Of a stretch of 38,809 bases of DNA, positions 25,280 to 35,362 are shown piece by piece. The stretch is from Candidatus Omnitrophota bacterium. Lineage in GTDB: Bacteria > Omnitrophota > Gorgyraeia > DTHP01. The notes beneath the pieces were generated by a model. The model was not told where the DNA came from, ran no database searches, and saw nothing but the letters and a program-made list of their open reading frames with translations. Numbering within the stretch: position 1 is the first letter of the stretch; each line of letters starts with the position of its first letter. Both the position numbers and the translations under genes were made by a program. Where the stretch lies: NCBI GenBank assembly GCA_037442605.1, contig JBBIPY010000002.1, positions 1-38,809 on the forward strand. Reading direction: 5' to 3'.

Positions 25280-25357
25280 TTATCCTCGGGCAAAGGCATC
25301 CGGGCCAATAGAGAAACATAGAATCAATATAGTCCAGAATATTTTTCTCTTATTCAT
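25280..25357 (-). pseudogene. Leader-only relic of an island paralog (MNKRKIFWTILILCFSIGPDAFARG*)
   Basis: The 25-codon ORF matches the signal/anchor region of the neighbouring gene (..LIAPDAFARRVK..) at protein and DNA level (cgggcaaaggcatc), then stops. Confidence 0.55.
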
Positions 25358-25393
25358 TCCTCTGACATAGTTTCCCTGCTTTTTCAGCGGAAA

Positions 25394-26782
25394 CTATTTC
25401 AGCCTCTCTCTGACTTCTTCGTTTATGCTTTCAATCAAGCCTTTTGTTTCTAAGAACTTGAGAATAGGATAAACACCATCAAAAGCCCTCACTAGAGCAA
25501 TGAGCGTCCTGCCCAGGCAGGGAACGGTTACATCGCGAAAATAGCGGGGGTTCCCGGACAAATCCCAGATATCTCTAAATGTTCCCTCTAACTGAGCGAT
25601 ATAAATCGCCAATTCCCTGACATAAAAGGCAATCTGACGAGGATTTTCTTCGGCAATCTTTCTCCACTGCCAGTCATTTAAACTCTTGGCTGAGTCCGCT
25701 ATCCATATTTTCTCTTCAGCGGTATAGTTATATGGGCCGGTTTTTCCCGTAACTAACAGATGAACATCTATACACATTGTGTCGGCTAACAGTTCTAAAA
25801 AACGTATTTCAGGATAATATTTCCCCTGTTCTAGGTCATAGATTACAGAAGCATCCTGTAAGCCTATTCTCTTCGCCAGTTCTTCTTGTGTAAGGCCAAT
25901 TCTATAACGATAAAGATGGATACGCTCTCCTATGCTACGTGTTACATAGTAAGGAAATCTTAATATTTTCCTCATAAATTGCATAGTATCTAAATCTCCG
26001 ATTTCCTGTTCGTTCACTCTGTTTTTGAATTTCTGAGACAAACTGTTGAAATCTTCCCGTGCCTCCATTAAAATTCTCCTATAATATTTATACATAACTT
26101 CGAGTGTATGATGTTTAAGAAAACTGAACTCCGTAAGAAAGTGGTGCGCCTCAAACATTGTTATGTCTATCCCCAATTCTCCTGCTGCCTTTACCAACAA
26201 TTGTTGCTGGACTTCAAATGGAACATAATCCCAGCGCATATGCCTTTCATCAGAAGAAAGTATATCTATTACCCCCTCAATAGTAAATTCAGCTCTCTCT
26301 GTTGAAATATCTAATATTTTAAACATAAATTGCATAGTATTTATAATACTAATATCCTCTAATGGTATTTTGGTTCTAATATCCGCAGGCAGAACATCGG
26401 GATCTTCTCGAGCTTTCTTTAATAAATTTGAGTAATACGTATAAATTCCACCTAAGGTTTTGCCCTTTATAAAGTTAAAGTGTTTTACCAAAGTATCCCT
26501 GGTAATTCTGGTTATATCAATATTCAATTCTCCCGCTACCCTCTCTAATAACTGCCTCTGGACAGACAGAGGCACATCTTTCCAGAAAACAATTTCCTCA
26601 TCAGAACTCAATTTCCTTATCACCTCAGTAAGTAAAGGGTCGTCTTTCACCCGCCGGGCAAAGGCATCGGGCGCAATAAGAGAGGTTAAGATAAATATAC
26701 CGATTACCGAAAAGATAATTCTTTTAATCATTTTACCTAAATCCTTCCAGCAACTGCTCCACGATAAACTCCGCCTGGTCAT
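25394..26782 (-). CDS. Anchor-RR-motif protein with an internal ~105-aa duplication, an XRE-type HTH and an unknown C-terminal domain
   Basis: Probable start MIKR at 26731. Hydrophobic segment then PDAFARRVK. Repeats at residues ~54-158 and ~171-275 (LSSDE..W..VP..VQ.QLL...AGEL.IDIT...ARED...TMQFM.KIL). HTH IGLTQEELAKRIGLQDASVIYDLEQG at ~25748..25933. Confidence 0.75.
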   Translation of the reverse strand: MTRRSLSWSSCWKDLGKMIKRIIFSVIGIFILTSLIAPDAFARRVKDDPLLTEVIRKLSSDEEIVFWKDVPLSVQRQLLERVAGELNIDITRITRDTLVKHFNFIKGKTLGGIYTYYSNLLKKAREDPDVLPADIRTKIPLEDISIINTMQFMFKILDISTERAEFTIEGVIDILSSDERHMRWDYVPFEVQQQLLVKAAGELGIDITMFEAHHFLTEFSFLKHHTLEVMYKYYRRILMEAREDFNSLSQKFKNRVNEQEIGDLDTMQFMRKILRFPYYVTRSIGERIHLYRYRIGLTQEELAKRIGLQDASVIYDLEQGKYYPEIRFLELLADTMCIDVHLLVTGKTGPYNYTAEEKIWIADSAKSLNDWQWRKIAEENPRQIAFYVRELAIYIAQLEGTFRDIWDLSGNPRYFRDVTVPCLGRTLIALVRAFDGVYPILKFLETKGLIESINEEVRERLK

Positions 26783-27488
26783 CGTAAGGATAATCCGGCG
26801 ACTCCACGATAATCAGCGCCTCAACAGCAACACTCTTATGCCTTAAAACGCCCATTATCTTACTTATCTGCCAGGCGATATCCTCTGCTGTTTGCGGTCT
26901 GTAGGAAGGAAGTTTGCTGTTTGAGAAAAACGCTAAATCAATTACAAGAACAACTGGCCCGAGTTCTTTACCAGGCGGTAATGCTTCCAAGGCATAAAGC
27001 AGCGTTATGGGATATCCGTAATCTTCCCGCATTTCCCTGGCAGTTGTCTGCAGGGAACTGCGCCAGGCAGGATAATTTTCCGTATAGGCAGGAAAAACCA
27101 CAAATATTTCCTGTATGAGTTCGTTATCGCAGAGATAATATAGCCAGTTTGAGGCCTGTAATTTCGGTAAAACCTCGGGATTGCAATCCAGATAGGGACT
27201 CAAAACCACTAAAGTCGGGTGCCTGCTGATTAAACCCCCGTGTAGTTTTTCTTTAATCCATAATGCCACACCCACAGGATAGTCTATAATCGCCACTCTC
27301 ATGGGGAATTTATAAGTCTCGAAAATATCCGGCCCTTTAAGTTCTTTACCTTCCACAGAATAAACTAATAACGGAAACCCCCTTGCTTCTTTCATTCTGC
27401 GCGCAAGGGCATCTCCGCTTATGACCAAGATAAATATGACCAGAATCAGAGGAATCTTTTTATTCATCTCTATGCCTGCCCGTTCCAC
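26733..27488 (-). CDS. Anchor-RR-motif protein, unknown function
   Basis: Probable start MNKKIPL at 27467. ILVIFILVISGDALARRMKE leader. Stop lies 1 nt from the next start. Confidence 0.7.
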   Translation of the reverse strand: MERAGIEMNKKIPLILVIFILVISGDALARRMKEARGFPLLVYSVEGKELKGPDIFETYKFPMRVAIIDYPVGVALWIKEKLHGGLISRHPTLVVLSPYLDCNPEVLPKLQASNWLYYLCDNELIQEIFVVFPAYTENYPAWRSSLQTTAREMREDYGYPITLLYALEALPPGKELGPVVLVIDLAFFSNSKLPSYRPQTAEDIAWQISKIMGVLRHKSVAVEALIIVESPDYPYDDQAEFIVEQLLEGFR

Positions 27489-27565
27489 CTACGCGGTGGA
27501 ATAACGGTGGAATACTCCCCGTTCCACCTACGCGGTGGAATAAGTGGAATAACGGTGGAATAACC
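27481..27565. repeat. Tandem ~39-bp units with ttccacc-tacgc-ggtggaa hairpins and ggtggaata words
   Basis: Hairpins at 27483..27501 and 27522..27540. About five occurrences of the word (g)gtggaata. Confidence 0.85.
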
Positions 27566-27566
27566 A

Positions 27567-34214: not shown

Positions 34215-34233
34215 GCTTCACCTGTTCTCAAAA

Positions 34234-34270
34234 GGGGTCAGGCACTTTTTTAAAAAAGGGGTCTGACCCC
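34234..34270. terminator. Hairpin ggggtcag...ctgacccc downstream of gene 34280..35191
   Basis: Same sequence as 31848..31884. TTTT follows on both strands. Confidence 0.55.
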
Positions 34271-34279
34271 TTTTCACTT

Positions 34280-35191
34280 TCAATGTAGAGAGTCTTGAGG
34301 CTTTAATAATTCTCCAGCGTAAAGTAAACCGATAATCTGCTCATCAGGAAGTGCATACTCACATTGTTTCCGCACCCACTCAACCATTCTCTTTTCAATC
34401 TTTTTCATAGAGATTCTGTCTTCCATTCCCTTTTCTTTTATCTCTCGCAACTCAGAAAAAAATCTGTCCTTTCCGCCTGAATATTGATTAACCACTCTAT
34501 AATAAAGCCCAAAGTGGGAGAAATTTCCGCAGCCATATTGAGAGTGGGAGAGGATTTCTGCTATCTTTTCCGGAGACACATCTATAGATTCTTTTATCCC
34601 ATCTACGGTAAATATAAACCTCTCCAGAGAAGATAGATCTGGTTTCTGAGAGGCAATTCGATGATAGAAATAAATTGCAAGATATGAGGGTAATTGCTCA
34701 AAACTCTGGGGATTAAACTGTTGTCTGGATTCCTCTAAGCCTAAGTCCTTCTCTATTTTAAAAATCTCTCTCATTGTTCTTACTAACTGAACAGAAAGTT
34801 CTCCCAAATCTACATATCCTTCTCCCTCCTTGCGCGCAGAAGAAACCGCTCTATATCCTTTGGAGGTAGGAAATACGCAGAAATACCCGATTTTTTCACC
34901 ATTTTTATAAACTCTGACGCTAACAAAAGCCTGAGGGTAGGAAAATTCTCCGGTTGGCGATACCGGAGGAAGGTATTTTCCCCAGAGATGAATCTCGTAT
35001 TCACCGTCTTTAAAGACTTCGGCGATCTCGCTGCGAATTCCGGTTTTTAAATCCTGAATCAGTTCATAAAAAGTAAAATCCCGGATACGCCTTGTTATAT
35101 AATCATCCGTAAGAATATAAAATGGAGAAAATAAAAATTCGCCGGATAGAAAAATAGCTACCAAGACCTTCATATTCCAATTTCCTTTCAT
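34280..35191 (-). CDS. First island gene: anchor-RR-motif protein, unknown function
   Basis: MKVLVAIFLSGEFLFSPF...YITRRIRD leader. No recognised domain. Alternative start at 35173. Confidence 0.65.
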   Translation of the reverse strand: MKGNWNMKVLVAIFLSGEFLFSPFYILTDDYITRRIRDFTFYELIQDLKTGIRSEIAEVFKDGEYEIHLWGKYLPPVSPTGEFSYPQAFVSVRVYKNGEKIGYFCVFPTSKGYRAVSSARKEGEGYVDLGELSVQLVRTMREIFKIEKDLGLEESRQQFNPQSFEQLPSYLAIYFYHRIASQKPDLSSLERFIFTVDGIKESIDVSPEKIAEILSHSQYGCGNFSHFGLYYRVVNQYSGGKDRFFSELREIKEKGMEDRISMKKIEKRMVEWVRKQCEYALPDEQIIGLLYAGELLKPQDSLH

Positions 35192-35347
35192 AATCTTCCT
35201 CCCATCCTTTTTAAATTTATACCTTTAAAAAGGGGTCTGATCCCTTTTATCTATTACATATAAGATATAACACGGATTTCGGCTTTTGACAAGGGAGGGG
35301 AAATACTTTATAAATTTGTAAATAAATGAGATAAAAAATATCTCTTG

Positions 35348-35362
35348 GCAAAATATGTGCCA
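35348..35362 (-). promoter_or_regulatory. Near-consensus sigma-54 (-24/-12) promoter facing the island
   Basis: The minus strand reads cTTGGCAC-atatt-TTGCc (TGGCAC-N5-TTGC). It lies 20 nt after the ilvC stop and ~157 nt upstream of the start at 35191. Confidence 0.65.

Follow-up and report, generated by a model that had tools for sequence, protein, structure and literature searches.

The stretch of DNA analyzed here (the window, 38,809 nucleotides from an Omnitrophota bacterium) contains, between ilvC and leuA, an island of eight minus-strand open reading frames (ORFs; g1–g8, 25394–35191) and two leader-only relics. All eight products begin with the same kind of leader, in which a basic n-region and a hydrophobic segment of ~14 residues are followed by an arginine box with the consensus Φ-x-A|R-R-[V/I/L]-[K/R]-[D/E], where Φ is a hydrophobic residue and the bar marks the presumed cleavage site. 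The same box was found on 23 further proteins in three other sources, namely two Omnitrophota metagenome-assembled genomes (MAGs) and one metagenome contig, where the genes mostly lie in clusters. Our tentative reading, built on sequence patterns, is that leader and box may form a lineage-specific two-part export and processing signal, carried by a fast-changing set of secreted effector-like proteins of this bacterium. The box is apparently undescribed, but it looks like a familiar type of element, a short motif adjoining a signal-peptide cleavage site. No model covering it was found in Pfam or NCBIfam, and no description of it was found in the full-text literature (Omnitrophota with signal peptide or effector, SidJ with Omnitrophica, and sorting motifs).

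A hydrophobic segment followed by a dibasic string had been claimed for all eight products in an earlier, sequence-only reading of this DNA, and the claim is borne out. The quoted strings are all in frame, 23–43 residues from the start, and a six-frame regular-expression scan of the whole window (38.8 kb) found the pattern given in that reading at exactly the eight island N termini and at two out-of-context positions (a plus-strand ORF at 26649 and a non-ORF position, 6696). As estimated from composition, RR-[VILM]-[KR] is expected in a 30-residue stretch at ∼0.003 per protein, so that its presence in eight of eight adjacent genes is far beyond chance. Position counts were made on 32 leaders from the four sources, a sample of ∼100 kb, aligned on the arginine pair as +1 and +2; both positions are Arg in 32/32 leaders. 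Upstream, −1 is Ala in 20 leaders and a small residue (A/S/G/T/C) in 26, −3 is L/A/V/T/I/S in 27, and −4 is S/D/P in 18. Downstream, +3 is V/I/L/M in 26 leaders (L in four), +4 is K/R in 29, and +5 is D/E in 19. The hydrophobic cores are ∼20–35% identical and barely alignable across leaders. In the 32 boxes the arginine pair is encoded by AGA (21), AGG (17), CGG (12), CGT (7), CGC (6), and CGA (1), near overall genome usage, and the use of six codons at near-genome proportions indicates selection at the protein level. An internal Shine-Dalgarno or ribosome-pause element (the pair reads AGGAGG in g2, g3, and g5) was ruled out by this codon diversity.

The region ahead of the box has the features of a Sec signal peptide. 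By a heuristic count, rather than a SignalP prediction, the uncharged run has a median length of 14 residues and reaches at least 20 residues in 2/32 leaders. The net charge of the N-terminal flank is at least +2 in 27/32 leaders; compared with the 15 residues that follow the core, this flank is more positive in 21 leaders, equal in 4, and less positive in 7. The basic n-region, short h-region, and small or neutral residues at −1 and −3 looked for in a signal peptidase I (SPase I) substrate were all found; together they are features of cleavable Sec signal peptides, with the predicted site taken as A|RR. Control loci from Pirellulales, Patescibacteria, Bacteroidota, and another Omnitrophota (76.9 kb) were fetched through the transglutaminase (TGase)-like domain also found in g5, and none of their 20 signal-peptide-like ORFs carries the box. 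Among them, the Pirellulales and Patescibacteria homologues that combine TGase and tetratricopeptide repeats (TPRs) have plain signal peptides without the arginine pair.

The leaders are of two classes. In short leaders the box lies 0–6 residues past the core (e.g. ...SLIAPDAFA|RRVKD), and in long leaders an extra spacer of ∼20 residues places the arginine pair 11–20 residues beyond the hydrophobic segment. The long leaders of g2, g3, and g5 follow the pattern core-A-x-A|VHPGGGDSGxYSxSC..(L/F)G(A/T)|RR, with a Gly/Ser/Asp-rich spacer and an AxA|V site of their own; Gly/Asn-rich analogues occur at loci L002:11446, L004:10001, and L005:666. The 15 residues that follow the core of a long leader carry a net negative charge (−2 to −3). 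Comparison of close relatives shows where leader and cargo meet. From the arginine pair onward, 336 residues of g5 align without gaps to its strain variant P0004 at 96.4% identity, with unrelated leaders (42 vs 27 residues) ahead of them, and g8 is 97.6% identical to its strain variant P0009, which has a hybrid leader with a first half like that of g7. Three pseudokinase orthologues (g2, P0002, and P0003) carry three different leaders before the same arginine pair, paralogue homology begins at this pair, and one and the same cargo can carry either a long or a short leader. These alignments place the predicted leader/cargo junction exactly at RR.

The leaders of g2, g3, and g5 share 68–80% identity across 45 residues. 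At the DNA level, the duplication of the long leaders also takes in an upstream GC-rich hairpin and T-run (GGGGTCAGACCCCTTTTTT or GGGACACATCCCTATTTT), the untranslated region (UTR), and the ribosome-binding region. The hairpin regions upstream of the leaders (34215–34290, 31817–31892, 29622–29691, and 32675–32750) fall into two cassette types, g2/g3 and g5/relic 2. Since the long leaders are repeated together with hairpin and UTR, they behave as mobile cassettes, and the island would be a recombination hot spot in which cassettes of terminator hairpin, UTR, and leader are duplicated, swapped among cargo genes, and left as relics. Relic 1 (25280–25357, minus strand; MNKRKIFWTILILCFSIGPDAFARG and a stop) is truncated exactly at the box and ends in AFAR, and relic 2 (32600–32674, minus strand; MKNLRMKIIRLV...) has its upstream hairpin and UTR in common with g5.

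Homologues of g2 and g5 are very few among 5.8 billion proteins; their sources are Candidatus Omnitrophica MAG GCA_023819145.1, a Logan assembly, and a Joint Genome Institute (JGI) metagenome contig. A further source, Omnitrophota MAG CA_2019_NHSR_50, emerged from a scan of GTDB genomes. The box is borne by 9 of 12 adjacent genes at locus L001, 7 of 8 at L002, 4 of 4 after ilvC at L004, and 2 of 2 at L005, and by one gene at L003. The cargo of these relatives includes a Cas4-like PD-(D/E)XK nuclease, a staphylococcal-type nuclease (SNase), a uridine-kinase-like protein, a PrmA-like methyltransferase, a FeoA-domain protein, and a radical S-adenosylmethionine (SAM) enzyme with an intact CxxxCxxC motif. 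In BLAST comparisons between the islands only four families are common; the leader, not the cargo, is their common denominator. In GCA_023819145.1, box-bearing genes start immediately after ilvD-ilvBNC and continue to the contig end. The end of L004 and the start of L001 (contigs JAMWCW010000010 and JAMWCW010000009, respectively) split one TGase-TPR gene at adjacent codons, as judged against a paralogue, and the two contigs are almost certainly neighbours, broken at near-identical paralogues. As this gene is split over the two contig ends, the ilvC-proximal island in this genome probably comprises at least 15 genes. In the joined island, genes resembling g2, g5, and g7 occur in the order of the window, set among unrelated genes, which points to a conserved, rapidly changing hot spot next to ilvC. 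The presence of box-bearing genes directly after ilvC in this second genome agrees with the earlier proposal of one undescribed N-terminal signal on a syntenic and variable island. Locus L012 was discarded as a relative: it represents the same population as the window, is identical to it save for the repeat number of g2, and therefore gives no independent evidence of synteny.

In the two-part reading, the first part would be an ordinary Sec-type signal peptide, with a Lys/Arg-rich n-region, a ∼14-residue core, and a polar c-region, and the second part would be the box, at the predicted signal-peptidase site in short leaders and ∼20 residues beyond it in long ones. Sec would move the chain across the inner membrane with the N terminus inside. 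On the evidence of the position statistics and leader swaps, the leader would then be cut at A|RR, by SPase I or by a second protease of similar −3/−1 taste. The RRΦ(K/R)(D/E) string, exposed or nearby, might be a second-step tag by which a lineage-specific factor retains the protein, matures it, or delivers it onward, conceivably to prey or host cells. Part of the cargo speaks for this reading: TGase-TPR proteins are of a type that is exported in other lineages, and SNase, YWTD/NHL propellers, and a PG_binding_1 protein are also among the cargo.

Several points weigh against a two-part export signal. Cleavage, export, and a partner protein, all that lies beyond conservation of the motif, are inferred, and the islands were found to encode no candidate machinery. 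The first residues of the predicted mature proteins contain a basic cluster (R at +1/+2 in 32/32 leaders, K/R at +4 in 29/32) of a kind that is foreign to SPase I substrates. In Escherichia coli, Arg directly after the signal peptide is reported to inhibit Sec translocation (work attributed to Yamane & Mizushima 1988; Li, Beckwith & Inouye 1988; and Andersson & von Heijne 1991). The box of long leaders is so distant from the membrane that SPase I should not reach it. Moreover, the cargo is largely of a cytoplasmic type needing ATP, SAM, or Fe-S (radical SAM, uridine kinase, PrmA-like, FeoA, and helix-turn-helix (HTH) proteins), and once exported, such cofactor-dependent proteins would be functional only inside another cell that receives them. 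The sample is small and the known range narrow, with four sources. No relatives turned up in two metagenome scans, which used TGase N-terminal and pseudokinase patterns, and a word-index search with the leader alignment found nothing. When a leader profile was searched exhaustively with HMMER, the only hits were the training proteins, g7, a strain variant of g8, and one spurious repeat protein; this says little on the true range, as no profile of 39 columns can be expected to give significant matches among 1.8 billion sequences. The radical SAM protein (L005 1657–2604, CxxxCxxC intact) has a full leader and AWG|RRVKE, a combination that is hard to square with ordinary export.

The nature of this cargo would be accommodated by a tether facing the cytoplasm, an explanation that we regard as unlikely. 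Here the hydrophobic segment would stay uncleaved, as a reverse signal-anchor or a monotopic/hairpin element, with RRΦK remaining in the cytoplasm, where it would be a positive-inside determinant or a docking site, and the enzymes held at the inner membrane face. Typically cytoplasmic, cofactor-dependent proteins (the radical SAM, uridine kinase, PrmA-like, Cas4-like nuclease, FeoA, XRE HTH, and SidJ-like pseudokinase cargo) would then be where they are expected, and the three basic residues that short leaders have within 0–6 residues of the core form an arrangement that blocks Sec export in E. coli. The strongly basic N-terminal flanks nevertheless oppose N-out insertion, for which a basic tail would have to cross the membrane; the cores are short, and small residues at −3/−1 would serve no purpose in an anchor that is not cleaved. 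A reverse signal-anchor is expected to have a neutral or acidic N-terminal flank with a more positive C-terminal flank and a span of at least ∼18–20 residues, and most leaders show neither; their N-terminal flanks carry +2 to +5. In long leaders the arginine pair lies 11–20 residues off behind an acidic spacer and so cannot act as a positive-inside determinant, yet these leaders are swapped with short ones on the same cargo. In addition, a peptidoglycan-binding protein bears the box, and the TGase-TPR relatives elsewhere have ordinary signal peptides. Of the two mechanisms offered in the sequence-only reading, the reverse signal-anchor is thus disfavoured, and the other, a post-cleavage tag at AxA|RR, fits better with the −1/−3 pattern, the 14-residue run, the positive n-region, and the swaps at RR.

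The peptidoglycan-binding protein, which has two PG_binding_1 domains (2279–2923, minus strand), lies outside the island and carries a hydrophobic segment followed by HFV|RRLRE (2845–2822). Related features on non-island cell-wall proteins (HFV|RRLRE, GFA|KRWE, and EA|RREEE) would be expected if the box were a lineage-wide rule for ordinary Sec/SPase I substrates, without special sorting, and the island were a cluster of secreted proteins; lineage-specific +1 residues have a precedent in the Q-rule of Bacteroidetes (PMC5837995). We consider such a rule doubtful, as the arginine pair is absent from two lipoproteins with an LSGC lipobox (1378–1851 and 1926–2219), from three signal-peptide proteins in box-bearing genomes (L001:2864, L001:9683, and L002:8434), and from the best SPase site of the OmpA protein (VLA|FV), in a sample of only ∼6–8 non-island exported proteins. 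The motif had been described as missing from the other envelope proteins of the window. This is correct for the two lipoproteins and incorrect for the PG_binding_1 protein; the OmpA/LysM protein has a loose EARRE. In this last protein (417–1367, minus strand) the loose dibasic motif ...VREA|RREEE follows the hydrophobic segment, as does ...KGFA|KRWE in a LysM-YkuD protein (L002 20683–21380), and both may be a degenerate box or chance.

The mixture of domains (XRE HTH, PIN toxin-antitoxin, a TPR-protease, and nucleases of Cas4-like and SNase type), the weak similarity of the radical SAM protein to the viperin model, and the variation of the locus between relatives resemble those of a defence island, in which the leaders would tether nucleases, kinases, proteases, and toxin-antitoxin to the membrane as abortive-infection effectors against phage. 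This is improbable: PADLOC on all eight proteins gave generic HTH and TPR matches only, without a known system architecture, and the invariant arginine pair and −3/−1 pattern would be left unexplained. Highly improbable, in our view, is a historical accident, where one duplicated leader cassette would be ancestral to all and the arginine pair a functionless frozen remnant. Cassette duplication is indeed visible (the g2/g3/g5 leaders, and relic 2 with the upstream region of g5), and hybrid and swapped leaders exist. Across the 32 leaders, however, all but the box has diverged to near randomness, length included, and retention of the arginine pair in every leader amid this divergence, with six synonymous codons, is a signature of purifying selection on the residues. 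Signals of other known types were also rejected. A twin-arginine translocation (Tat) signal has the wrong order, as the pair is 0–20 residues C-terminal to the core in 32/32 leaders; a lipoprotein (SPase II) signal would need a lipobox, which none of the eight island leaders has; and a prepilin signal does not match in its order or in the residues that it needs.

Compared with known systems, the leaders are closest in outline to SPase I signal peptides, whose −3/−1 AxA rule is reviewed in PMC9360617: they share the basic n-region, the ∼14-residue core, the polar c-region, and the small or aliphatic residues at −3/−1. They differ in the added invariant Arg-Arg and the Lys/Arg at +1, +2, and +4, and in that the box of long leaders lies ∼20 residues past the core. 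The Tat signal likewise has an AxA site and an invariant arginine pair, after which come a hydrophobic residue and a basic one (RRxFLK vs RRΦK), but its arginine pair precedes the core, whereas that of the box follows it with no second hydrophobic stretch after it. The lipoprotein export signal (LES) of Bacteroidetes and the lipoprotein +2 rule are similar in that a short charged motif after the cleavage site sets the envelope location; unlike the box leaders, which have no lipobox, they need a lipidated Cys at +1. In the Q-rule of Bacteroidetes, Gln is at +1 of SPase I substrates and is cyclized to pyroglutamate (PMC5837995, PMC10653852). This is also a lineage-restricted conserved residue right after a signal-peptidase site, but it is Q rather than RRΦK, and it applies to most SPase I substrates of a phylum, whereas the box is seen mainly on effector-like proteins encoded in clusters within a narrow clade. 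For the box there is, moreover, no known modifying enzyme.

A formal resemblance is found to the Plasmodium export element (PEXEL; RxLxE/Q/D), the Toxoplasma export element (TEXEL; RRLxx), and the RxLR export element of oomycetes (PMC10900883, PMC4764566). PEXEL and TEXEL are Arg-based pentamers 0–20 residues after a signal peptide, and R-x-Φ-x-[D/E] is present in 19/32 box leaders; they mark a maturation boundary on a large, diverse, and fast-evolving effector repertoire of a host-dependent organism. They are, however, eukaryotic, and are cut after Leu by aspartyl proteases of the endoplasmic reticulum/Golgi, whereas the box data place the boundary before RR, and position 3 of the box is mostly V/I, with L in 4/32 leaders; the resemblance is one of analogy only. 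By this analogy, the box could be a bacterial counterpart of PEXEL/TEXEL, a post-Sec export-to-victim address read by a candidate protease or translocon, with which a predatory or parasitic Omnitrophota lineage would deliver into prey a polymorphic arsenal of protease, pseudokinase, nucleases, nucleotide kinase, methyltransferase, and perhaps the radical SAM enzyme as well, although we think it unlikely. Omnitrophota have been proposed to be predators or parasites (PMC10066038). Speculatively, delivery into other cells would fit the proposed lifestyle as well as the formal resemblance to PEXEL/TEXEL.

The box draws attention as a strictly conserved motif with diverse codons, placed where the rules of E. 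coli predict an export block, on normally cytoplasmic enzymes. The lipobox, Tat, LPXTG, PEXEL, and Q-rule motifs each let the substrates of a pathway be listed from sequence alone, which then gave access to its machinery. As for Omnitrophota, which are ultra-small, uncultured, and putatively predatory or parasitic, nothing is known, to our knowledge, of how they act on other cells. If the box is a true sorting tag, it would be a searchable handle on a candidate effector repertoire and would predict a dedicated processing or translocation factor; if it is PEXEL-like, the motif alone would reveal the whole effector repertoire of these uncultured bacteria. Should the proteins stay inside the cell, they would form an unusual class of N-terminally tethered cytoplasmic enzymes, so that either outcome is informative.

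The ilvC–leuA interval spans 10.2 kb, and its eight co-oriented ORFs and two leader-only relics are as the sequence-only reading had them. The upstream flank consists of ilvB (37078–38760), ilvN (36484–36963), and ilvC (35382–36374), a ketol-acid reductoisomerase identified by its translation and by KARI_N/KARI_C domains on the L004/L012 orthologue. The downstream flank is leuA (23664–25172), a 2-isopropylmalate synthase identified by its translation and by HMGL-like and LeuA_dimer domains on the identical L012 gene; all four are on the minus strand. G+C is 0.39–0.44 inside the island, slightly below the 0.45–0.49 of the flanks. The tight packing that had been reported holds for the spacers of 43–102 nt and the overlapping g7/g8, the lone exception being a 0.9-kb gap between g2 and g3. 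This gap contains relic 2 and a pair of genes on the opposite strand, a VapB15-like antitoxin (31969–32220, plus strand; VapB15 model 39.9 bits, below its cut-off of 80) and a PIN-domain toxin (32201–32605, plus strand; PIN_3 87 bits, cut-off 27; TIGR00305 77 bits, cut-off 29). A PIN toxin preceded by a small antitoxin gene with a 20-nt overlap is the arrangement of a VapBC type II toxin-antitoxin system, and the pair is probably an insertion outside the box-bearing set. It adjoins relic 2 and has the appearance of an insertion that destroyed one cargo gene.

The eight island genes, all on the minus strand, differ widely in their cargo. The protein of g2 (32718–34214; 498 residues; long leader 34214–34080, MGT|RRARG) combines a SidJ-related pseudokinase-like region with three YWTD/NHL-type β-propeller blades. 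Its score against NF033874, the NCBIfam model of SidJ-related pseudokinases, is 67.4 bits (E = 1.1e-18, model positions 127–345 of 507), under the cut-off of 300 bits, which makes it a distant relative of this family and not a member. The propeller is backed by PDB sequence and fold matches. An AlphaFold2 (AF2) model from a three-sequence alignment has a mean predicted local distance difference test (pLDDT) score of 57.6 and is confident only in the propeller and some C-terminal helices; the pseudokinase-like region is of low confidence, and Foldseek with this model returned YWTD/NHL propellers only. The blade number (32718–33100) is three in the window and two in L012 (4596–5966), with ∼7 in the orthologue P0002; the difference is either true repeat-number variation or assembly collapse. 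Of the two kinase-like proteins that had been suggested, g2 stands at this sub-threshold level, and a second one was rejected: g4 and g6 show no similarity to g2, with hhalign probabilities of <1% for g4, g6, and L004:8391 against the g2 family.

The protein of g5 (28485–29621; 378 residues; long leader 29621–29481, LGA|RRVRD) has a TGase-like Cys-His-Asp domain and four TPRs (TPR_1 at E = 2.7e-31). On its own, g5 gives just a weak DUF553 match for the catalytic domain. In its family, the C, H, and D are invariant across six members and Transglut_core is matched in 5/6 (best E = 5e-7); by this predicted triad and the profile match, the family belongs to the transglutaminase-like cysteine protease superfamily (PF01841). 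A TGase-like domain, without the arginine box, is also present in a giant ORF of 5184 residues (L009 23–15577) in Omnitrophota MAG STB_134. The protein of g8 (25394–26731; 445 residues from the ATG at 26731; leader and box 26731–26642, AFA|RRVKD) has two internal repeats of ∼120 residues and an XRE-type HTH (HTH_31 at E = 5e-7). Profile or fold matches thus agree with the earlier naming of a TGase-like core with TPRs (g5), NHL-like repeats (g2), and an XRE HTH (g8).

The same reading could name no family for the rest, and searches of Pfam and NCBIfam detected none in the remaining five proteins. These are g1 (34280–35191; 303 residues; leader and box 35191–35078, YIT|RRIRD), g3 (30905–31816; 303 residues; long leader 31816–31682, FGA|RRARG), g4 (29665–30858; 397 residues; leader and box 30858–30739, QAI|RRSKV), g6 (27567–28382; 271 residues; leader and box 28382–28281, AWA|RRVKT), and g7 (26733–27467; 244 residues from the ATG at 27467; leader and box 27467–27387, ALA|RRMKE), the last with a homologue at L001:12028–12765. 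PDB sequence searches with g4 and g6 were empty, and a single-sequence AF2 model of g6 was unusable (pLDDT 36). The otherwise unrelated g1 (35101–35078) and L002 12216–13553 have an extended box, RRIRDF(T/D)F, in common.

Elsewhere in the window, a prepilin (type IV leader) peptidase gene (21134–21880, minus strand; A24_N_bact and Peptidase_A24) indicates the presence of a pilus or of machinery of the type II secretion system; no connection of this peptidase to the box was found. The lowest G+C of the window (0.364) is at 16070–17442 (minus strand), where a DNA methyltransferase-like ORF with an FADPPYF motif and an adjoining small ORF are probably a horizontally acquired restriction-modification pair.

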